The notes under the pieces were generated by a model. That model saw nothing but the letters and a program-made list of their open reading frames with translations, ran no database searches and was not told the DNA's origin. From Kiritimatiellia bacterium (GTDB lineage Bacteria > Verrucomicrobiota > Kiritimatiellia > RFP12 > UBA1067), in contig JAZLMG010000027.1 of assembly GCA_045598585.1 (NCBI GenBank), positions 4,380-68,379 of the forward strand: DNA of 64,000 bases. The letters run 5' to 3'. A program made the position numbers and the translations under genes. Every line of letters starts with the position of its first letter. Position 1 is the first letter of the stretch. This document shows, piece by piece, positions 32,085 to 62,995 of the stretch.

Positions 32085-33254
32085 ATGGATAGACTCAATA
32101 ACCCGTTTACCCCCGGCGCCGGCGCATTACCGCCGGAGCTTGCAGGCCGTTCTCAAATAATAGAGGATGGGCGCGTTCTCGCAGGTCGCATTCTTAAATC
32201 ACGTTATGAGAAAAGTTTGTTGCTGATTGGGCTGCGTGGTGTCGGCAAGACCGTACTTCTTCGTCATTTAGCGGAAACGGCGCGTAAAGATGGTGTTGTT
32301 CCTGTTGTGGTTGAAGTTAGAAGTGCAAAGACTGACATTGAAGAGTTGTCTTTGAGGTTAAAAGAGTCGCTTTCGACAATCGACTTCGCTTCTAAAGTCA
32401 AGGCCAAGGTTAACTATGCGTTCTCTGTTCTGAGTAACTTCGTCAGGGCTTTCGCTATAAATATAGGGGATTTTGGTGTTACTGTCGAACTCGCGCAAGG
32501 GGTTGCATCGTCCGGCAAGATGGAACTTGACCTATCTGAAGTTCTAATAGCTTGCGCACGGGCGGCAAAGGACGCGGAAACCGCCATAGGGCTTTATATT
32601 GATGAGTTGCAAAATCTTGATATTGAGGCAATGAGAGGTATAATTGTGGCACTCCATCGCTCGGCTCAAGAGTCTTTGCCGCTTTACATGGTCGGCTCCG
32701 GATTGCCATCTATTCGCGGGTTGATAGGAAAGAGTAAGACCTATGCAGAAAGAATGTTTAACTACGCGGATGTTGGTGCGTTAAATGAGAGTGATGTCGA
32801 TGCGGCGATAACTATCCCGATGAATGCTAACGGTCTTGACATCGAGCTCTCGGCAATTAAAGAAATCTTTCGCGCAACGCAAGGGTATCCATATTTCTTG
32901 CAAGAGTATGGATATCAAGTGTGGCTTGCGGCAAACGGCGAGTCGATTACCGCCAAAGAGATTCTAAGTATTGGGGAAGCGGTTGAACGCAGATTAGACG
33001 CGAACTTCTTTGATGTGCGATTTGATCGGGTTTCGAACATTGAAAAGTCCATGCTTAGATTCATGGCTGATTTCCCGAGTGAGGCCTCGGTGTCTGTGTC
33101 GGAGTTGGCGGAGCGAATGGGCAGAACGTTGAGTTCATTATCGCCAATACGTTCGTCTTTAATTAAAAAGGGGATGATATATTCGCCCAAGCATGGCTGT
33201 GTTGCATACACGGTGCCGATGTTTGGTGAATATATGAAGCGAGTAATGCCCTAA
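32085..33254 (+). CDS. AAA+/STAND-like ATPase with C-terminal winged-helix (Arch_ATPase/DUF234-like)
   Basis: 389 aa with N-terminal NPFTPGAG…GR, Walker A GLRGVGKT, Walker B LYIDELQ, GYPYFLQ, and a C-terminal wHTH-like SVSELAERMGRTLSSLSPIRSSLIKKGMIY. Confidence 0.65.
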   Translation: MDRLNNPFTPGAGALPPELAGRSQIIEDGRVLAGRILKSRYEKSLLLIGLRGVGKTVLLRHLAETARKDGVVPVVVEVRSAKTDIEELSLRLKESLSTIDFASKVKAKVNYAFSVLSNFVRAFAINIGDFGVTVELAQGVASSGKMELDLSEVLIACARAAKDAETAIGLYIDELQNLDIEAMRGIIVALHRSAQESLPLYMVGSGLPSIRGLIGKSKTYAERMFNYADVGALNESDVDAAITIPMNANGLDIELSAIKEIFRATQGYPYFLQEYGYQVWLAANGESITAKEILSIGEAVERRLDANFFDVRFDRVSNIEKSMLRFMADFPSEASVSVSELAERMGRTLSSLSPIRSSLIKKGMIYSPKHGCVAYTVPMFGEYMKRVMP

Positions 33255-36599: not shown

Positions 36600-36655
36600 T
36601 CTATCAGTGAAAACGTCAAAAGTCTATCAGTGAAAACAGGAAATATCTATCAGTG
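36600..36655 (+). promoter_or_regulatory. 3 direct repeats of TCTATCAGTG at 23-bp spacing abutting the -35 of the DUF4143 ATPase promoter
   Basis: Copies at 36600-36609, 36623-36632 and 36646-36655. The first two are embedded in identical 20-mers (AAAAGTCTATCAGTGAAAAC). Confidence 0.7.
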
Positions 36656-36684
36656 TTGATTATATCTGAGAAATATGATATAAT
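36656..36684 (+). promoter_or_regulatory. extended -10 promoter of the AAA_14/DUF4143 gene
   Basis: TTGATT, 17-nt spacer, TGATATAAT. Confidence 0.55.
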
Positions 36685-36706
36685 ATTTGCATATTTTGGA
36701 GGGTAT

Positions 36707-37975
36707 ATGAAACGTAGAGGTTATCGCGACAGATTGATTGATAAAAATGTGGAGCTTTATCTTTCCACATTCGGTGCAGTGTGCTTGGAGGGCCCGAAGT
36801 GGTGTGGAAAGACATGGACAAGTCTTGCTCATGTCAAAAGTGCATATATGATAGCAGATCCATCTGACAACTTTGCGAACCGTCAATTAGCTAAGTTAGA
36901 TGTTAACAAGGCCTTAGAAGGTGAAACTCCACATCTAATTGATGAATGGCAAGAGATTCCTGCGGTTTGGGATGCAGTAAGATTTCGTGTTGATGAGGAA
37001 GCAAAGACCGGGCAATTTATCTTAACAGGATCGTCAACTCCGCAGAACAAAGGCGTCATCCATTCAGGGACGGGTCGAATTGCGCGGCTTCCAATGCATC
37101 CAATGTCGTTATACGAGAGTGGTGATTCAACAGGATCAGTATCATTGGCTGCAGTTTGCCGCGGTGAATCGATTGGTGTCGAGGCAATGGAATGTCCCAG
37201 TGTTGAACGATTGACCTCGCTTGTTGTAAGAGGAGGGTGGCCAGCTGCGCTTGGGAAATCCGATGAACAGGCAATGTTGATTCCTCGAGAATATATCGAA
37301 AACGTAATAAATATCGATATTCATAAATTGGATAATATAGAGCGGGATTCGGTAAAGGTTCGTAAATGCCTTAGATCGCTGGCACGTAATGAGTCGACTT
37401 CCGCAACAACAGCAACTATTCGGAATGATATTGCTGAAGTCGATGATTCTACGCTTAGCATCAATACTGTCGTCAATTATCTCGATGCCTTCAAGAGACT
37501 GTTCTTGACGCATGATACGGAGCCTTTTTCCACTTTCCTTCGCTCCCCTACGCGGATTAAGCAGCAAGCGAAGCGCCGCTTCTGCGATCCTTCAATAGCT
37601 GCCGCGTTACTCGGAGCGACGCCGGCGATGCTAATGCGAGACTTAAGGACATTTGGATTGTTGTTTGAATCTTTGGCTGTAAGAGATCTTGAAATCTATG
37701 GTGAATCTCTCGGCGCGAAAATTTATCATTATCAAGATTATGATAGCGATGAGTTTGATGCTGTTTTGCAGTTCCCGGATGCTTCCTGGTGTGCGTTTGA
37801 AGTGAAGTACAATCCTGAAGATATTGAGGAAGCTGCTAAGAACCTTATCGAAACCTCTAAAAAGTTTGTGCACAATCCTCCACGAGCGCTTTGTGTTATT
37901 GTCGGCAAACATGGCATCGCTCACCGTAGGGATGATGGAGTTTATGTACTTCCTTTAATGATGCTTCGTCCATAA
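36707..37975 (+). CDS. AAA_14-type ATPase with DUF4143 C-terminal domain
   Basis: ATG 36707 follows GGAGGG. Walker A GPKWCGKT, Walker B LIDEWQ, and C-terminal DUF4143-like FESLAVRDL…YHYQD…DAVL. Confidence 0.8.
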   Translation: MKRRGYRDRLIDKNVELYLSTFGAVCLEGPKWCGKTWTSLAHVKSAYMIADPSDNFANRQLAKLDVNKALEGETPHLIDEWQEIPAVWDAVRFRVDEEAKTGQFILTGSSTPQNKGVIHSGTGRIARLPMHPMSLYESGDSTGSVSLAAVCRGESIGVEAMECPSVERLTSLVVRGGWPAALGKSDEQAMLIPREYIENVINIDIHKLDNIERDSVKVRKCLRSLARNESTSATTATIRNDIAEVDDSTLSINTVVNYLDAFKRLFLTHDTEPFSTFLRSPTRIKQQAKRRFCDPSIAAALLGATPAMLMRDLRTFGLLFESLAVRDLEIYGESLGAKIYHYQDYDSDEFDAVLQFPDASWCAFEVKYNPEDIEEAAKNLIETSKKFVHNPPRALCVIVGKHGIAHRRDDGVYVLPLMMLRP

Positions 37976-38181
37976 TAACAACATCTCAAGAAGTCGCTCG
38001 CGAGGGGATGGAAGTGCTCGCAAGGCGAGGCGCTTCGCCGGATGAGAACACAAAAATTTCGCCGCGCGGCAGGGTGATGATATGATTCCTAACCAAGCGG
38101 CGAGCCATATTTTATAAGGGTCATAGCGCGTTTTTGCCGCGCTATAAACGCGCCGCGAGCTATAAGTTGCTAAAAATAGCG

Positions 38182-47840: not shown

Positions 47841-47883
47841 GCGAACTATTCTATCAGATATATTAGTTCGATTTACCAACAGC

Positions 47884-47915
47884 AAACGGCTTCGAAAGGA
47901 GCCGTTTGTTATTTT
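47884..47915 (+). terminator. rho-independent terminator of the giant gene
   Basis: AAACGGCT-tcgaaagg-AGCCGTTT followed by GTTATTTT. Confidence 0.8.
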
Positions 47916-47922
47916 AAGGGGC

Positions 47923-47952
47923 TTGATTTGAGAGAGAGGATTTTGATATAAT
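47923..47952 (+). promoter_or_regulatory. cassette promoter 1 (GGGGCTTGAT…TGATATAAT)
   Basis: TTGATT, 18-nt spacer, TGATATAAT. ATG 47961 is 8 nt after the -10. Confidence 0.6.
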
Positions 47953-47960
47953 AGCGTAGC

Positions 47961-48893
47961 ATGAATCCTTTAAGAAATAGCAATATTAACTACTGCCAAG
48001 GGTGGTTCTTCGTTACTATCCAAGTGGCGATGAACAAATCGGTTTTTGGTGTTGTTTCCGATAAGAGATTAATTCTTAATGAGTTAGGAAATGCGGTTAA
48101 AGAGAATCTAAGCCGACTTGGAAATATATTCCCGGAATTATATGTTGATACCTTTGTAATTATGCCGAACCATCTTCACGCTATTTTCAAGATAGATAGT
48201 AAAAGCGAGTCGCGGCATCTGTCGTATTTTATAGGACGATTCAAGTCTTTCACAGCGAATTTGTATCATAGAATGGTAAGAGAAGGTGTTTGTATTGATA
48301 TTGGGGCTTCGCTTTGGCAGACTAATTATTACGATAATTTGATAACCGAACATAAGGAGCTGGAAGCCATCAGAGAATATATAAGGAGAAATCCCGAGAG
48401 ATGGGAGGATGACCGTTTTGGCCCGGTTACGACATATTCAAAGGGAAACCTGAAGCTGTTAAATGAGTCTTTGGTGGCATTTGTCGCGTCAGATACTAAA
48501 GATAATTGGCAAGAGGATGTGCCGCATTTAAGAGAGGTGAGAGAGGTTTCAGGACGGAGCCCTATTTCAAAAGAAGCTCCCTTAATATCCACTTTCTCTA
48601 GTTTTGAGGAAAAAGGAGCTTTGTTAAAAAGAATAAATGATAGGTTGCCTTTTATATGGGTAGATCCGGCAGGAATTAAGCCGAATCTTCGTCCTGATAT
48701 TGAATCGGCGATTCTTGAAGGATGGGGATTGGTGATTTCTCCGGTTGAAAGCGGGACGGGACTCAATAAACAACGGGCGATCTGGTGTAATAGATGGATT
48801 ATTAAGGTAGCTAAACGAATTTATGTTGGAACGATAAAGAAGGGTGGTACTCTTGATACATTGTTGACGCACGGAGGCGTCAACCTACGATAA
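47961..48893 (+). CDS. HUH Y1 transposase (IS200-like/REP-associated RAYT, COG1943-type) fused to a DprA-like (SLOG-fold) C-terminal domain
   Basis: 310 aa. The N-terminal ~160 aa carry the HUH motif (MPNHLHAIF), LWQTNYYDNLI and the catalytic-Tyr motif (EYIRRNPERW). The C-terminal ~150 aa resemble DprA at motif level: GNLKLLNESLVAFVAS (compare GNxxLL…vaIVGSR) and GLVISPVESGTGLNKQRAIWCNRWIIKVAKRIYVGTIKKGGTLDT (compare liSE.p.g…F..RNRiI.gls…vvEa..kSGsl.T). Confidence 0.6.
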   Translation: MNPLRNSNINYCQGWFFVTIQVAMNKSVFGVVSDKRLILNELGNAVKENLSRLGNIFPELYVDTFVIMPNHLHAIFKIDSKSESRHLSYFIGRFKSFTANLYHRMVREGVCIDIGASLWQTNYYDNLITEHKELEAIREYIRRNPERWEDDRFGPVTTYSKGNLKLLNESLVAFVASDTKDNWQEDVPHLREVREVSGRSPISKEAPLISTFSSFEEKGALLKRINDRLPFIWVDPAGIKPNLRPDIESAILEGWGLVISPVESGTGLNKQRAIWCNRWIIKVAKRIYVGTIKKGGTLDTLLTHGGVNLR

Positions 48894-48940
48894 CATATCG
48901 TGGTGCTCGGCCTCTGTGCCGAATTATGTAATCTTCCGCG

Positions 48941-48995
48941 CGAGGGTGTGAATAGAGGCGAGGAGTGATCTTCGCCTCTTTCTTCGTCTTTCCCG
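48941..48995 (+). repeat. 55-nt hairpin element, copy A (full length)
   Basis: CGAGGGTGTGAATAGAGGCGAGGAGTGATCTTCGCCTCTTTCTTCGTCTTTCCCG, inserted after TCCGCG. The flanks match the empty site at 52227-52263. Confidence 0.85.
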
Positions 48996-49015
48996 GCACT
49001 TTGGCGGAATGGGGC

Positions 49016-49045
49016 TTGATTTTCCCAAGGGGAATATGATATAAT
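49016..49045 (+). promoter_or_regulatory. cassette promoter 2
   Basis: GGGGCTTGATT, 18-nt spacer, TGATATAAT. Confidence 0.6.
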
Positions 49046-49147
49046 ATAAGCGATCTCCCGAAAGGTGGGATCATCTGGATGCGGAGGAAAGTCTTCGCGT
49101 TGGTGACGGGAAGTAATTCTCGTCGCCTTCTCATTTTAGCGGCAGGC

Positions 49148-49837
49148 ATGGCAGAGAAAATATTGAGTATATTTGTGGATGAATCGGGGCGCTTTCAGTA
49201 TCCCGATTCCGATTCTCGTTTCTACATTTTGGGTCTTGTATTACACGATCAATCTGACGCAATAGATAAATACGTTGCAGATCTTGAGCGGTCTGAAGAT
49301 GAGGTTGGACTTGAAGGGCATTGTTTTCATGCCGGACCTCTTATCCGCAAGGAGAAGGGGTATGAAATCATGAGTCGTAAATGGCGTGGAAGGATATTCT
49401 CTCGCATGATGGCATTTGCTCAGAAGGTTCCTTTTCGCTATCATTGTCTGAGCGTTGATAAGAAACTTATTGATGATGTTGGCCAGATTGTTGAACGCTT
49501 AGATCGACAACTGGTTGAGTTCATTTCATTGCATCGAATCGACTTGTTCAATATCGAGACTATCAAGATATACTACGATTGTGGTCAGTCTCCGGTTACA
49601 AATCTTCTTCATAAGACATTCGTTGAAGAACTCGGGAAACGGGTGGAGTTTGCGCAAGGAGTACAACCGTCAAGCTATCGGCTTTTCCAGTTGGCAGATC
49701 TCGTATGTACAGTTCATCTAATCGAGCGGCGTCTGGAAGAAGGGGATAGGATGACGATGTCAGAGGTTCGGTTCTTTGGCGGTCCTCGCGACTTCAAACG
49801 AAATGTTTTGAAAAAGCTCAAGGCCAAGGAAGTTTAA
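49148..49837 (+). CDS. DUF3800-family protein
   Basis: N-terminal ILSIFVDESG and C-terminal YRLFQLADLVC are DUF3800 hallmarks. An alternative upstream ATG at 49079 is conserved in the truncated copy. Confidence 0.7.
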   Translation: MAEKILSIFVDESGRFQYPDSDSRFYILGLVLHDQSDAIDKYVADLERSEDEVGLEGHCFHAGPLIRKEKGYEIMSRKWRGRIFSRMMAFAQKVPFRYHCLSVDKKLIDDVGQIVERLDRQLVEFISLHRIDLFNIETIKIYYDCGQSPVTNLLHKTFVEELGKRVEFAQGVQPSSYRLFQLADLVCTVHLIERRLEEGDRMTMSEVRFFGGPRDFKRNVLKKLKAKEV

Positions 49838-49889
49838 TCGAAGTAATCCTGTAAATCCTGTAAATCCTGTCTAAAACAGGACAAGCTAA

Positions 49890-49931
49890 AGAGGCGAGGC
49901 GTGAGTCTCGCCTCTTTCTTCGTCTCCCGCG
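49890..49931 (+). repeat. hairpin element, copy B (hairpin + 3' part; different 5' flank)
   Basis: AGAGGCGAG-gcgtgagt-CTCGCCTCT TTCTTCGTCTCCCGCG, preceded by the TCCTGT-ctaaa-ACAGGA hairpin (49865-49881) and AAATCCTGT tandem 9-mers. Confidence 0.8.
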
Positions 49932-49951
49932 GCGCATTGGCGGGAGGGGGC

Positions 49952-49981
49952 TTGACGAGGTTATCATAATTATGATATAAT
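49952..49981 (+). promoter_or_regulatory. cassette promoter 3
   Basis: GGGGCTTGACG, 18-nt spacer, TGATATAAT. The SD AAGGAGA precedes ATG 50006. Confidence 0.6.
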
Positions 49982-50005
49982 TCTTATCGGTTTAAGGAGA
50001 AGATT

Positions 50006-50302
50006 ATGCCGCCTATGATTAAAGACTCGGATATTCGTCCGATTTCCGACTTGCGCAATAAGTTCGCCGAAATTGCGGATTATGTGCAAGATGGTAATGC
50101 CGTTATCTTTACGCGTAATGGCTATGGTTGCATGGTGACGATCAGTTACGATTCGTTCAAGCGTCTAGGAGATCCTGTGCTTGCTGAATTGCGAGAGGCG
50201 GATCGAAAGTGCGAGCAGGACCCTCGTCATTATACGAAAGAAGAGTCTTTAGCCATTTTGAAGGAGCGCGCTAATGCTCGGCGAAACCGCGTACAGGCTT
50301 GA
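50006..50302 (+). CDS. Phd/YefM-family type II antitoxin
   Basis: 98 aa. IRPISDLRNKFAEIADYV…VIFTRNGYGCMVTISYDSFKRL is typical of Phd/YefM. Confidence 0.8.
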   Translation: MPPMIKDSDIRPISDLRNKFAEIADYVQDGNAVIFTRNGYGCMVTISYDSFKRLGDPVLAELREADRKCEQDPRHYTKEESLAILKERANARRNRVQA

Positions 50303-50621
50303 TATTCGTCCGACATTTATCGACGAGCTTGATCGCGCGGTAGAGTATATCGAGCGCAAATTCAAAAATCCTATTGCGGCAGACAATCTTATTAACGATG
50401 TCTACGCGGCGATAGACGAACGACTTTTTGCGCCGGAATCATACGAACCTTGCTATCGTCCACCGGATGTAACCAAGCCGTATTATCGTATTGATGTGCG
50501 AAACTATTCGATATATTACGTGGTGATTGGTTCGGTAATGGAAGTCCGGTGGTTCAGATATTCAAAGAGCGTTCAGCCTCTTTCCGGATATCCGATCTAT
50601 GAGTCCGGAAGTGTCTGGTAA
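50274..50621 (+). CDS. RelE/ParE-family type II toxin
   Basis: 115 aa overlapping the antitoxin, with a ParE-like core (YRLDIRPTFIDELDRAVEYI…YYRIDVRNYSIYYVVIGSVMEVRWFRY). An atypical C-terminal tail runs into the relic at 50605-50667. Confidence 0.72.
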   Translation: MLGETAYRLDIRPTFIDELDRAVEYIERKFKNPIAADNLINDVYAAIDERLFAPESYEPCYRPPDVTKPYYRIDVRNYSIYYVVIGSVMEVRWFRYSKSVQPLSGYPIYESGSVW

Positions 50622-50667
50622 CGCGAAGGTTAAGTACTTCCGCGTCCGCGTCAAGGCGACCAAGTAA
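50605..50667 (+). pseudogene. relic of a giant-protein 3' end (…PEVSGNAKVKYFRVRVKATK*)
   Basis: Aligns with the giant C-terminus TFTGDKKVKYYKVSVKATK* at both protein and DNA level (GTCAAGGCGACCAAGTAA vs GTCAAGGCAACGAAGTAA). It is out of frame with the parE end. Confidence 0.65.
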
Positions 50668-50709
50668 TCTTGGAAATCCTGTCAATCCTGTCTAAAACAG
50701 GCAAGTTAA

Positions 50710-50752
50710 AGAGGCGAGGAGTGATCTTCGCCTCTTTCTTCGTCTTCCCGCG
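50710..50752 (+). repeat. hairpin element, copy C (hairpin + 3' part)
   Basis: AGAGGCGAGGAGTGATCTTCGCCTCT TTCTTCGTCTTCCCGCG, preceded by the CCTGT-ctaaa-ACAGG hairpin (50687-50701). Confidence 0.8.
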
Positions 50753-50772
50753 GCGCATTGGCGGGAGGGGGC

Positions 50773-50802
50773 TTGATTTTCCCAAGGGTAATATGATATA
50801 AT
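50773..50802 (+). promoter_or_regulatory. cassette promoter 4 (near-duplicate of promoter 2)
   Basis: GGGGCTTGATTTTCCCAAGGGTAATATGATATAAT vs GGGGCTTGATTTTCCCAAGGGGAATATGATATAAT at 49011-49045. Confidence 0.6.
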
Positions 50803-50859
50803 ATAGGCGATCTTTCGAATGAAGGATCATCTGGATGCGGGGAAAGTGCTCCGCCTTAA

Positions 50860-51069
50860 GTGACGGGTTCGCCTGTCACTTTCGCATTTAATAGAATGAC
50901 GAGAAGGTCGCTTAGTGTATTTGCAGATTTAATCTGTACAATTCGCTTTATAGAGGAAGAACTTAACGTTGGCGATGGGATGACATCTTCCGAAGATAAG
51001 TTCTTTGGCGGTCCGAAGGCATTCCGTCATAATGTATTGCGTTATGTTAAGTCCAAGGAAATTCGTTAA
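50860..51069 (+). pseudogene. truncated DUF3800 paralog (promoter, leader and last ~50 codons only)
   Basis: LSVFADLICTIRFIEEELNVGDGMTSSEDKFFGGPKAFRHNVLRYVKSKE aligns with YRLFQLADLVCTVHLIERRLEEGDRMTMSEVRFFGGPRDFKRNVLKKLKAKE of the intact copy. The N-terminal DESG part is absent. Confidence 0.75.
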
Positions 51070-51080
51070 GGGCTTTGTTT

Positions 51081-51167
51081 TCAGCTAAGGCGGACTCGAT
51101 CCCGAAGACCTTCGGCGAAGGTAAGAAGGTCAAGTTCTTCAAGGTCAGCGTCAAGGCGACCCGATGA
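51081..51167 (+). pseudogene. relic of a giant-protein 3' end (SAKADSIPKTFGEGKKVKFFKVSVKATR*)
   Basis: Aligns with SAEAKTVSIPMTFTGDKKVKYYKVSVKATK* (47748-47840), with strong DNA identity (TCGATCCCGAaGACCTTC…AAGAAGGT…AAGGTCAGCGTCAAGGC). Confidence 0.75.
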
Positions 51168-51238
51168 TGCGAGCATCCCCGTGGCAGGCGAAGTAATCCG
51201 CGGCAGAAATGCCCAAGATGTAACAAGAACAACAACAG

Positions 51239-51268
51239 ACGGCTTCGCAAGGAGCCGTTTGTTATTTT
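51239..51268 (+). terminator. second copy of the giant-gene terminator
   Basis: ACGGCTtcgcaaggAGCCGTTTGTTATTTT vs ACGGCTtcgaaaggAGCCGTTTGTTATTTT at 47886-47915. Confidence 0.75.
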
Positions 51269-51338
51269 CCATGTTTGTGCTTGGCACATCTGTGGAGAAT
51301 GAAAATCGTATCTTCCGCTATACTTTGGCGTAAGGGGC

Positions 51339-51368
51339 TTGACAAAGGTGTATCCTAAATGATACAAT
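51339..51368 (+). promoter_or_regulatory. cassette promoter 5
   Basis: GGGGCTTGACA, 18-nt spacer, TGATACAAT. ATG 51375 is 6 nt after the -10, so the transcript is probably leaderless. Confidence 0.6.
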
Positions 51369-51374
51369 ATTGAC

Positions 51375-51662
51375 ATGACAATTCGAGAGACAGAGCTATA
51401 TAAGAAGTGGTTTGCAAAGTTGAAAGATACGGTAGCTAAGGCGCGTATCTTGGTGCGACTTCGTAGAATGGCGCTTGGTAATTTCGGTGAGTATAAGGAT
51501 TTGGGTGATAATGTTTCGGAGTTGAAGTTTCATTTCGGTCCTGGATATCGGATTTACTACACAGAGAGAGATGGCGAGATTGTAATATTATTGGCGGGAG
51601 GCGACAAGTCTTCGCAGACTAAAGATATTGCTAAGGCAAAGGAGCTTGCCGCAAACTTGTAA
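51375..51662 (+). CDS. addiction-module killer protein (HigB-like, RelE/ParE superfamily)
   Basis: 95 aa. GNFGEYKDLGDNVSELKFHFGPGYRIYYTERDGEIVILLAGGDKSSQTKDIAKAK is the canonical killer-protein signature. Confidence 0.85.
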   Translation: MTIRETELYKKWFAKLKDTVAKARILVRLRRMALGNFGEYKDLGDNVSELKFHFGPGYRIYYTERDGEIVILLAGGDKSSQTKDIAKAKELAANL

Positions 51663-51672
51663 GGAGGGTGTT

Positions 51673-51957
51673 ATGAAAACTAAGACTACAATTTGGAAGA
51701 TTGAGAATCACCTTAAGACGAAAGAAGAGCGTGAGGCTTATCTTAACGCGGCGTTTGAGGATGGTGATGCGTCTGTTATTGCTGCGGCGCTCGGTGATAT
51801 TGCTCGAGTTGAAGGTATGAGTAAGGTTGCGAAGAAGTCCGGGCTTGGACGGGAAAGCCTTTACAAAGCTTTGTCGGCTGAAGGCAATCCTGCTCTTGGG
51901 ACGATTATTAAAGTTCTTAAAGCGTTTGATTTTAATCTTCGAGCGGCATGCTTTTAA
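51673..51957 (+). CDS. addiction-module antidote protein (HigA-like HTH)
   Basis: ATG 51673 follows AAGGAGGG. YLNAAFEDGD…GMSKVAKKSGLGRESLYKALSAEGNPALGTIIKVLKA. Confidence 0.85.
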   Translation: MKTKTTIWKIENHLKTKEEREAYLNAAFEDGDASVIAAALGDIARVEGMSKVAKKSGLGRESLYKALSAEGNPALGTIIKVLKAFDFNLRAACF

Positions 51958-51977
51958 CATAGCAAAGCTTCTCCGCG

Positions 51978-52033
51978 CGAGGGGGTAAATTGAGGCGAGG
52001 TGTGAGTCTCTCCTCTTTCTTCGTCTTTCCGCG
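51978..52033 (+). repeat. hairpin element, copy D (full length, degenerate stem)
   Basis: CGAGGGGGTAAATTGAGGCGAGGTGTGAGTCTCTCCTCTTTCTTCGTCTTTCCGCG, flanked by TCCGCG on the left. Confidence 0.8.
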
Positions 52034-52073
52034 GCGATTTTGGTTTGTTTATGCAGTTATTGTTTCGGAATAA

Positions 52074-52113
52074 TTCAGTATTGTTTCAGTACGGATTCAG
52101 TAACGATTCAGTA
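52074..52113. repeat. 4 x 11-bp tandem repeat (TTCAGTA core)
   Basis: TTCAGTA at 52074, 52085, 52096 and 52107, with an exact 11-bp period. Confidence 0.75.
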
Positions 52114-52258
52114 CTGTTGCGGTTTGTTTTTAAAAAGAGGGGACAGTCCCCAATTCGTGGACATTCGAAAGGCGATGCAAGCATTCGTGTTCCCATTCGT
52201 GCCTCGCGCCGGTAGGCGCCAACATCTAATCTTCCGCGGCACTTTGGCGGAATGGGGC

Positions 52259-52288
52259 TTGACAGGATGATATCATATATGATACAAT
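52259..52288 (+). promoter_or_regulatory. cassette promoter 6
   Basis: GGGGCTTGACA, 18-nt spacer, TGATACAAT. ATG 52296 is 7 nt after the -10. Confidence 0.6.
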
Positions 52289-52295
52289 ACATGCC

Positions 52296-52634
52296 ATGAA
52301 TTACGTGACTAAGAAGTATGAACGAGAGAATGGGGCAATTCCCTTCGACGAATGGATCTCGTCGCTTTCGCCGGTATTTCGTGCTCGAGTCTATGCTTAT
52401 CTCACGAGAGTTGAGCTTGGCAATTGGGGTAATGTCAAGTCAATCGAGGGCGAGGATTCGAAAGATCTATTTGAGTTGCGTATGTTCTTTGGCCCCGGAT
52501 ATCGCGCTTATTTCGGCAAAGATGGTGACAAATTGATATTGCTACTTTGCGGAGGCGACAAGAAGACGCAAAAGCGTGACATCAAAGAGGCGAAGATGTT
52601 GTGGAATGAATATCGAAAGAGGAAAGGAGAATGA
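52296..52634 (+). CDS. addiction-module killer protein (HigB-like), paralog 2
   Basis: 112 aa. GNWGNVKSIEGEDSKDLFELRMFFGPGYRAYFGKDGDKLILLLCGGDKKTQKRDIKEAK. Confidence 0.85.
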   Translation: MNYVTKKYERENGAIPFDEWISSLSPVFRARVYAYLTRVELGNWGNVKSIEGEDSKDLFELRMFFGPGYRAYFGKDGDKLILLLCGGDKKTQKRDIKEAKMLWNEYRKRKGE

Positions 52635-52635
52635 T

Positions 52636-52953
52636 ATGGCTTTGACGGTTGATTATCGTGAAGGAGTGTTAAAAGACATCCGGGAAAATCCTGAGGTGGC
52701 ACGCGAGTATTATCGCGAAGCGGTTAAGGCAACGATTAACGGAGAGACGGATGTCGCAAATTCGATGTTTCGCGACCTTGTAAATGCAGGTATCGGCTTT
52801 CAGCGACTTGCGGCCGAAACGGGAATCAGTGCGCCGAATCTTCATCGCGCACTATCTCCACGCGGCAATCCTACTATGAAGACATTTAGTAAGATAGCAG
52901 CTGCGGTCAGTTTGTATTTGGGTTTCCCCACCCCGATGGGAATATTCGGTTAA
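52636..52953 (+). CDS. addiction-module antidote protein (HTH), paralog 2
   Basis: ATG 52636 lies 2 nt after the toxin stop. FQRLAAETGISAPNLHRALSPRGNPTMKTFSKIAAA. Confidence 0.8.
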   Translation: MALTVDYREGVLKDIRENPEVAREYYREAVKATINGETDVANSMFRDLVNAGIGFQRLAAETGISAPNLHRALSPRGNPTMKTFSKIAAAVSLYLGFPTPMGIFG

Positions 52954-52980
52954 ACCAAGAACAAACATCCACCATCCGCG

Positions 52981-53035
52981 CGAGGGGGTAAATAGAGGCG
53001 AGGCGTGAGTCTCGCCTCTTTCTTCGTCTCCCGCG
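52981..53035 (+). repeat. 55-nt hairpin element, copy F (full length, best consensus)
   Basis: CGAGGGGGTAAATAGAGGCGAGGCGTGAGTCTCGCCTCTTTCTTCGTCTCCCGCG, flanked by TCCGCG on the left. It has a 9-bp stem and an 8-nt loop. Confidence 0.85.
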
Positions 53036-62959: not shown

Positions 62960-62990
62960 GAGCCGCGGTATTTTGCCGCGGCTCTTTTTT
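62960..62990 (+). terminator. rho-independent terminator after rplL
   Basis: GAGCCGCGG-tattttg-CCGCGGCTC followed by TTTTTT. Confidence 0.8.
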
Positions 62991-62995
62991 CTCCA

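Follow-up and report, generated by a model that had tools for sequence, protein, structure and literature searches.

This report concerns a short hairpin element, referred to below as the T-module, in a 64-kb stretch of DNA from a Kiritimatiellia bacterium (contig JAZLMG010000027.1; "the window" denotes this whole stretch of 64,000 nucleotides, to which all positions refer, and loci or contigs used for comparison carry L numbers). Within the window, copies of the element are confined to a 5-kb array of small gene cassettes that starts at the stop codon of a giant open reading frame (ORF) of 3201 amino acids, in which no Pfam domain was found. Five cassettes end in the hairpin, namely those carrying a Y1/RAYT-like gene (RAYT stands for REP-associated tyrosine transposase, and REP for repetitive extragenic palindrome), a DUF3800 gene, a Phd/ParE toxin-antitoxin pair and two HigB/HigA-like pairs. 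Neighbouring genes in the window are housekeeping genes according to Pfam scans (MreB, MreC, PBP2, RodA, RNase E/G, EF-Tu, L11 and L1), and the scans, which covered 56 tested ORFs across the 64 kb, detected no integrase or other recombinase besides the Y1 gene. The features of the locus are collected in Table 1.

The hairpin core, AGAGGCGAGGnGTGAnnCTCGCCTCT-TTCTTCGTCT, was found by direct reading of the region at five plus-strand starts (48954, 49890, 50710, 51991 and 52994), with successive copies spaced by 936, 820, 1281 and 1003 nt. The core copies differ by 0-2 mismatches, and 100 shuffles of the sequence gave 0 matches. The same five were recovered by a repeat finder and by a covariance model, which was built from 12 copies and run on the entire 64 kb with filters off; the model returned exactly these plus-strand copies (E <= 5e-14) together with weaker reverse-strand echoes at the same sites. 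The original prediction of five copies in one orientation, three full and two partial, was therefore correct in both number and position. A degenerate extra copy proposed at 37996-38040 did not hold up, sharing only two 9-10-nt words with the element and escaping the covariance model even at E <= 10. A wider search for copies was equally negative: there was no other significant site in the rest of the 64 kb, where two weak model matches, with E values of 0.026 and 0.077, fall on different terminator-like hairpins, no T-module in the related loci fetched, and 0 element matches in exact and relaxed pattern scans of species-representative genomes and Joint Genome Institute (JGI) metagenomes. Relaxed patterns gave 21 single matches, all in unrelated high-GC sequence without a T-rich tail, which were judged to be due to chance. 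No Rfam family matched the element, two tRNAs being the only Rfam matches in the window. An array of clustered regularly interspaced short palindromic repeats (CRISPR) or a DNA uptake sequence was excluded by the spacing and the lack of other copies.

On the coding strand the element folds into an 11-bp GC-rich stem with a GTGA tetraloop, followed by a T-rich tail, so that the stem and T-rich stretch described earlier are real but the stem is longer than was thought. Segments of 66-67 nt fold at -25 to -38 kcal/mol on the plus strand, and the minus strand is worse by ~6 kcal/mol. Pairing in the inner stem reaches 96% over 12 distinct copies; at one pair both bases have changed, C-G being replaced by A-U in three copies (with U-G there in one further copy), and three other pairs alternate between G-C and G-U. 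G-U pairs form on the plus strand only, which fits the energetic advantage of that strand. The covariation score lies above 499 of 500 shuffles, a result that with 12 related sequences is supportive and not decisive. The hairpins start 34-89 nt after the stop codons at 48893, 49837, 50621, 51957 and 52953, all of co-oriented genes, and every copy lies on the strand of positive GC skew. In a terminator scan all five copies were among the top plus-strand terminator-like sites and passed a rule of at least 5 T in 8, in keeping with the earlier suggestion that the element could act as a terminator. The tails vary between strains yet remain T-rich (TTTCTTCGTCT, TTTTTATTTGCC, ATTTTCATATAAT and TATCTTTATCTTT).

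The ends of the element are less regular than its stem. An alignment of the 12 copies resolves a 5' part, a loop and a tail that reassort among copies, but gives no fixed ends. The 5' part, CGAGGG(G/T)GT(A/G)AAT, follows TCCGCG in copies A, D and E and is missing from copies B (49890) and C (50710). Full copies are all preceded by C(C/T)GCG, and most also end in C(C/T)GCG. At the proposed insertion site, TCCGCG does stand before every full copy in the window; CCGCG, however, both precedes and ends the element, so that it resembles a direct repeat, and the length of the flanking repeat is not fixed but ranges from 5 to 11 nt. Neither end (CGAGGG... or ...TTCTTC) is an inverted repeat of the other, one central hairpin takes the place of distinct left-end and right-end hairpins, and AAC/GTT triplets are missing from the conserved columns. 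The element is without GTAG; in most copies the stem is followed 5 nt further 3' by CGTC, which is missing in L024 and in both L028 copies. A CGTC-tagged REP assembled from the element tail and a CCCGC...GCGGG hairpin of the promoter module was also considered; copies B and C obey this grammar, yet other copies and strains have lost the tag and the 3' arm, and the idea was not adopted.

The T-module is one of several short modules that recur in the array. Every cassette is headed by a homologous near-consensus promoter module (...GGCGGAATGGGGCTTGA-N18-TGATATAAT), and in a promoter scan the sequences 3' of the hairpins were the top matches, with a TG extended -10. A second terminator, termed type 1, is unrelated to the T-module and occupies the same kind of position. 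Interspersed with the cassettes are remnants of the giant gene's 3' end, measuring about 8, 43 and 85 nt, and copies of the stop-codon string AAGTAATC stand at 49841, 50662 and 51191.

Table 1. Features of the giant gene and the cassette array, in window coordinates.
Feature	Position	Strand	Remarks
Giant gene, 3201 aa	38235..47840	+	Array begins at its stop codon; same gene-to-array context in L001 and L022
Type-1 terminator of giant gene (AAACGGCTTCGAAAGGAGCCGTTTGTTATTTT)	47883..47915	+	Alternative boundary module; also follows HigA-2 in L023, L025 and L029
Promoter module, Y1 cassette	47918..47953	+	Repeat finder, promoter scan
Y1/RAYT-like gene, 310 aa	47961..48893	+	HUH motif; Y-I-x-x-N-P tyrosine motif; Pfam Y1_Tnp
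Inverted pair of tagged hairpins of the Y1 gene	48863..48922	both	Kept in L001-L007, L016-L018 and L051
T-module copy A, full	48941..48995	+	Hairpin 48954-48979; 61 nt 3' of Y1 stop; followed by promoter module
Promoter module, DUF3800 cassette	48996..49046	+	TTGATT-18-TGATATAAT
DUF3800 cassette gene	49148..49837	+	Pfam
T-module copy B, hairpin and tail only	49890..49931	+	5' side is unrelated sequence with TAAATCCTG repeats
Promoter module, Phd/ParE cassette	49932..49982	+	Repeat finder, promoter scan
Phd/YefM-ParE toxin-antitoxin pair	50006..50621	+	Pfam
Giant-gene 3' remnant, 43 nt, diverged	50625..50667	+	Stop codon included; repeat comparison
T-module copy C, hairpin and tail only	50710..50752	+	Preceded by the 43-nt giant-gene 3' remnant
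Second DUF3800 copy, internally deleted	50751-51070	+	Promoter, leader and first codons fused to last ~50 codons
Promoter module, deleted DUF3800 copy	50753..50803	+	Repeat finder, promoter scan
Giant-gene 3' remnant, 85 nt, diverged	51083..51167	+	Repeat comparison
Type-1 terminator, second copy	51234..51268	+	After giant-gene 3' remnant
Promoter module, HigB-1	51308..51369	+	Degenerate "empty" form, ATCTTCCGCTATACTTTGGCG...
HigB/HigA-like pair 1 (Gp49 and HI1420-type antidote)	51375..51957	+	Pfam
T-module copy D, full, degraded stem	51978..52033	+	3' of HigA-1; orthologous copies in L019, L020 and L021
Promoter module, HigB-2 ("empty site")	52227..52289	+	TAATCTTCCGCG joined to GCACTTTGGCGGAATGGGGCTTGACA-N18-TACAAT; filled in L028; other left junctions in L019 and L022-L027
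HigB/HigA-like pair 2 (Gp49/HI1420-type)	52296..52953	+	Pfam
T-module copy E, full, best stem	52981..53035	+	-38 kcal/mol; 3' of HigA-2; abuts promoter of ORF 53073; orthologous copies in L024, L026, L027 and L028

Sites with and without the element can be compared both within the window and between strains. The flanks of copy A, TAATCTTCCGCG (48929-48940) and GCACTTTGGCGGAATGGGGCTTGA (48996-49019), are contiguous at 52227-52262, and the filled/empty pair first noticed in the window is thus genuine. Each flank of the "empty site" is in turn a boundary module that recurs in the array, one a stop-codon remnant and the other a promoter module. Exact protein matches to HigB-1, HigB-2 and HigA-2 gave strain contigs in Logan assemblies (sequencing runs SRR28408113, SRR28794371 and SRR28772461 among others); exact-protein look-ups with Y1, Phd, ParE, DUF3800 and ORF646 found nothing. 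One of these contigs supplies a further pair: in L028 a T-module lies upstream of HigB-2, with a stop remnant (GCAAAGTAATCCTTCCGCG) on one side and the HigB-2 promoter module on the other, at the exact position that is empty in the window, and it is flanked by an 11-nt direct repeat, ATC(C)TTCCGCG. The presence/absence polymorphism on which the original prediction was built is therefore real, but its conclusion that the element had been inserted is not favoured over deletion. Since CCGCG is repeated on either side of the element, an insertion-like gain and a precise deletion account for a filled/empty pair equally well, and the pair alone gives no direction. In L025 the "empty" position holds a divergent 10-nt patch (GACGAGGCGC), which could be a deletion scar but is not cleanly derivable from a filled site, and this reading of the contig was rejected.

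The strain contigs show that the T-module is inherited with the gene upstream of it, while its surroundings are mosaic. It follows HigA-1 in all four contigs that could be compared (window, L019, L020 and L021) and HigA-2 in five of eight (window, L024, L026, L027 and L028); the remaining three (L023, L025 and L029) have a stop-codon remnant and a type-1 terminator at the same place. L051 retains the position of copy A, after the Y1 hairpin pair. In L019 the T-module is fused straight to the HigB-2 promoter module, where a segment of ~200 nt intervenes in the window and in L020. L021 keeps the 5' part and the stem, with the loop AGATAAT and an unrelated tail without CCGCG; the same loop occurs in L028, again with the stem kept. 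An identical HigBA-2 cassette is found in at least 6 different neighbourhoods among strains. Among copies, 5' part, loop type and tail occur in different combinations, and the neighbours on both sides differ between strains. In L022 two unrelated genes separate the giant gene from the HigB-2 cassette, and the stretch read has neither a Y1 gene nor a hairpin module. A Kiritimatiellia metagenome-assembled genome from horse faeces (L052) is the closest species representative; its ORF646 orthologue is 88% identical. There a tRNA gene (L052 9890-9975), not a cassette array, lies upstream of the orthologue of ORF646/ORF 53073, so synteny to the left differs. Since the closest species representative has this tRNA gene in its place, the array is a recent, lineage-restricted feature.

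The interpretation preferred here, to which we give a probability of roughly 60%, is that the element is an intrinsic terminator at cassette boundaries that doubles as a homology tract in a recombination mosaic, and is not a jumping element of the IS200 type. The T-module behaves as a terminator: it is found on the coding strand just 3' of stop codons, has a stable stem and a drifting T-rich tail, and is interchangeable with an ordinary terminator. The hairpin most likely terminates transcription, as a lineage-specific repeated terminator. The T-module would form the 3' end of small self-contained promoter-to-terminator cassettes, serving both as an intrinsic terminator and as a 3' hairpin that stabilises mRNA. 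Cassettes of addiction or defence type, variable among strains, would accumulate, through repeated acquisition in a hotspot, at the stop codon of the giant gene in this gut Kiritimatiellia bacterium, each with a near-consensus extended -10 promoter module at its start and the T-module or the unrelated second terminator at its end. Short modules that unrelated cassettes have in common could serve as homology tracts, in which, as at their CCGCG-repeat edges, recombination or gene conversion would shuffle cassettes; the same process would swap hairpin variants and generate the filled and empty states. The 43-nt and 85-nt giant-gene remnants, together with the AAGTAATC stop remnants, would then mark repeated recombination at this locus; recombination is likewise the probable route by which the element was copied.

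Several observations weigh against this interpretation. There are two clean filled/empty pairs, one within the window and one between L028 and the window, and in the window pair the 12-nt and 24-nt flanks are 100% identical, implying a recent event. The CCGCG direct repeats that bracket full copies are what a target-duplicating insertion is expected to leave. The T-tract is interrupted (TTTCTTCGTCT) and weaker than canonical terminators in the window, such as that at 62960-62995. The full element can also form a two-stem fold, with an outer stem CCGCG.GAGG/CCUC.CGCGG, an internal loop and the inner stem, which a simple terminator does not need. Lastly, close relatives are represented by short contigs only (1-6 kb), and dispersal within the genome was judged on the window alone, in which the ~60 kb outside the array is without copies.

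The Y1 gene next to copy A, which the original prediction had not noticed, bears on the question of mobility. The motifs MPNHLH and REYIRRNP of its protein are invariant in a family alignment of 24 sequences, and homologues occur in Kiritimatiellia and related genomes. REPs are defined by a tetranucleotide tag, GTAG (or CGTC), at one end of a palindrome, and form a REPtron where they lie beside a RAYT gene (PMC3733652). The Y1 gene has such a pair of hairpins of its own. The minus-strand hairpin, TTATCGTAG-GTTGACGC-CTCCGT-GCGTCAAC, overlaps the last codons of the gene, and its plus-strand partner reads ATATCGTGG..TCGGC-CTCTGT-GCCGA; as a pair they overlap the stop codon. The same grammar, in which the tag is TCGT[AG]G, the stem GC-rich but variable and the loop CTCCGT or CTTCGT, is found beside or inside the Y1 gene at 10 homologous loci and in L051, and the tag and loop of the family are conserved from the window to distant genera. 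The adjacent Y1 gene, taken together with these hairpins, makes up an ordinary REPtron, here in an unusual phylum, and it offers a tractable RAYT-REP pair outside Proteobacteria. The T-module was tried as the REP of the Y1 enzyme and rejected, both the tag and the CTCCGT loop being missing and the copy downstream of the gene being single and in direct orientation. It is therefore not the cognate repeat of the enzyme.

Homologues of the Y1 gene show further features around their hairpins. In two distant Kiritimatiellia (L016 6943-9975 and L018 2137-3810), same-strand tagged hairpins separate cargo genes downstream of Y1, a layout that amounts to a hairpin-delimited gene array adjoining the Y1 gene; at two cargo junctions of L016 the hairpin is immediately 5' of a ribosome-binding site. 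In many homologues the tagged hairpins lie within the coding linker of the gene. Tandem hairpin-containing repeats in this variable linker, which encode repetitive peptide inserts, have periods of 27 nt in L010 (6236-6289), 45 nt in L012 (6531-6620), 39 nt in L013 (6539-6733) and 75 nt in L017 (6644-6868). A conserved C-terminal domain of roughly 100-130 amino acids is common to all homologues, and no Pfam or PDB sequence match was found over that part.

An unlikely alternative is that the T-module is a small non-autonomous mobile element, REP-like or akin to a miniature inverted-repeat transposable element (MITE), inserting between TCCGCG and G with a target duplication of 5-11 nt and mobilised in trans by the Y1/RAYT protein or by an enzyme encoded elsewhere. 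The filled/empty pairs in the window and between L028 and the window are in its favour, as are the C(C/T)GCG before all full copies and at the end of most, the 11-nt direct repeat in L028, the location of the Y1 gene 48 nt upstream of copy A and the placement of every copy on the strand of positive GC skew. These points are countered by the missing cognate tag and loop, by a single hairpin without terminal inverted repeats and by ends that are not fixed, since B, C and the copy in L021 share the hairpin and are unrelated on one side. Moreover, the remaining 60 kb of the window and the other loci searched contain no copy, L022 has the same type of array without Y1 beside the giant gene, and all copies are co-oriented with transcription, just 3' of a stop codon. 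The more specific proposal of IS200/IS605-type insertion is not supported, given that the hairpins of Y1 itself differ, that the element has one hairpin and unfixed ends, that it is inherited with the upstream gene and that none was found outside the array in the window, in related loci or in public collections.

Comparison with known small elements of this kind gives a similar picture. Like REPs and REP doublets forming hairpins (REPINs) with their RAYT, the T-module is a short extragenic palindromic repeat beside a Y1 HUH gene, and its presence differs between strains; REP and similar repeats are known, too, to follow coding regions and to function as RNA elements (PMC3733652). Unlike them, it carries no GTAG tag at the stem, forms no inverted pair around the RAYT gene and is not dispersed within the window, and the true REP pair of the RAYT is the one at 48863-48922. 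It shares with miniature elements derived from IS200/IS605 (palindrome-associated transposable elements, PATEs) a hairpin-based structure, a possible specific target at the left flank and a nearby Y1 gene, whereas it has one hairpin in place of distinct left-end and right-end hairpins, flanking direct repeats, and ends that differ from those around Y1. MITEs of the DDE type have terminal inverted repeats and a target duplication of fixed length, both of which the T-module is without.

It is improbable that the T-module is a structure-specific recombination site analogous to attC, at which a recombinase would excise and insert cassettes at the giant-gene stop codon. The arrangement is suggestive, with one site per cassette in one orientation, a spacing of 0.8-1.3 kb and a cargo rich in toxin-antitoxin genes, as in chromosomal integrons. 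The two-stem fold of the full element, the identical HigBA-2 cassette in its several neighbourhoods and the recurrence of junctions between CCGCG and G point the same way. However, the conserved AAC/GTT R-box triplets are missing, Pfam scans of the 56 ORFs in the 64 kb identified no integrase or recombinase gene besides Y1, and some cassettes finish in the different, ordinary terminator. The breakpoints also vary, lying within the T-module, immediately 3' of the hairpin or in the promoter module, and remnants of about 8, 43 and 85 nt are easier to reconcile with homologous or illegitimate recombination than with a precise site-specific crossover. A variant of slightly lower probability still is an integron-like system without an integron integrase, in which an HUH/Y1 enzyme, for example the neighbouring RAYT, would recognise single-stranded boundary hairpins and move promoter-to-terminator cassettes at the giant-gene stop; the hairpins would be the T-module, perhaps with the CCGC/GCGG hairpin that heads the promoter module. 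It is entertained because tagged Y1 hairpins separate cargo genes in L016 and L018.

A cis-regulatory RNA or protein-binding site (for example a processing signal or a small RNA) in place of a terminator is a very improbable reading of the hairpin: G-U pairing specific to the plus strand and a GNRA-type loop conserved in most copies would suit it, but the loop is AGATAAT in L021 and L028 with the stem kept, Rfam has no match, the hairpin is common to unrelated cassettes, and the other conserved property is the T-rich tail.

As a terminator in a cassette mosaic, the T-module can be placed among better-known arrangements. It shares with intrinsic terminators a GC-rich stem-loop with a T-rich tail, a position on the coding strand shortly 3' of stop codons, strand-specific G-U pairs and repetition after unrelated genes; it differs from them in that its copies are homologous over about 55-60 nt including flanks, limited within the window to one 5-kb array, bracketed by CCGCG and equipped with an interrupted T-tract. 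Integron arrays that lack an integrase are known as clusters of attC sites lacking integron-integrases (CALINs). Integron arrays and CALINs resemble the present array in having one hairpin site per cassette in the same orientation, cassettes of ~1 kb, toxin-antitoxin cargo with its own promoters and a strain-variable cassette order. They are unlike the present array, which has neither AAC/GTT R-box triplets nor, among the 56 ORFs scanned with Pfam, an IntI gene, and which has a promoter module for each cassette, an unrelated terminator after some cassettes, unfixed breakpoints and 3' remnants of the upstream gene between cassettes. Behind large polymorphic-toxin genes (Rhs, CdiA), displaced 3'-end fragments and small companion genes accrete downstream into strain-variable orphan-cassette arrays. 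The array studied here likewise has giant-gene 3' fragments and small genes accreted downstream and varies between strains, whereas its remnants come from the very 3' end of the gene, which is conserved and includes the stop codon, and not from variable toxin domains, and its cargo consists of independent toxin-antitoxin and defence cassettes with their own promoters. In layout and cargo the array is similar to a chromosomal integron, though not in sites or enzymes, and its upstream-gene remnants recall orphan-cassette arrays.

If the preferred interpretation is true, the locus is a clear natural case in which interchangeable toxin-antitoxin and defence cassettes are set between standardised promoter and terminator modules; the shuffling of these cassettes would be driven by short shared boundary sequences and not by a dedicated recombinase. 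It would help to explain how variable addiction and defence hotspots are built in the poorly studied gut Kiritimatiellia. It would also caution that filled/empty pairs with short direct repeats are no proof of transposition.

Some minor observations concern the giant gene and its remnants. In L001 and L022 the giant gene has different C-terminal alleles, followed by CCGCGGCA; a search with the last 350 amino acids of the giant protein gave mostly low-complexity candidates and one weak match. At 49845-49871 and 50666-50692, three 9-nt repeats (TAAATCCTG or variants) come right after AAGTAATC remnants and are followed by a small hairpin, CCTGTCTAAAACAGG. The same arrangement of remnant, 9-nt repeats and hairpin is also present in L024 and L026, but before the other terminator type. 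Upstream of the giant gene, two genes for AAA/STAND-like ATPases (32085-33254, AAA_16/nSTAND6; 36653-37975, AAA_14 and DUF4143) lie in stretches of lower GC content, which suggests that the wider 32-53 kb region is a variable island.

Two non-coding segments within the array have structure of their own. The leader of the DUF3800 gene (~100 nt) contains, between promoter and start codon, a terminator-like hairpin at 49102-49137 followed by TTCTCATTTT, and a similar hairpin is found in the deleted paralogue at 50859-50891; the leader hairpin may be an attenuator or regulatory leader. The segment after copy D (52034-52226) carries four ATTCAGTA repeats with a period of ~11 nt. Equivalent segments elsewhere (L021 780-830, L026 1735-1769 and L027 860-930) have other short periodic repeats (GAGTTCAAGTT, GAATTCAAATT and TCCCCAA), and these segments look like arrays of putative protein-binding sites.

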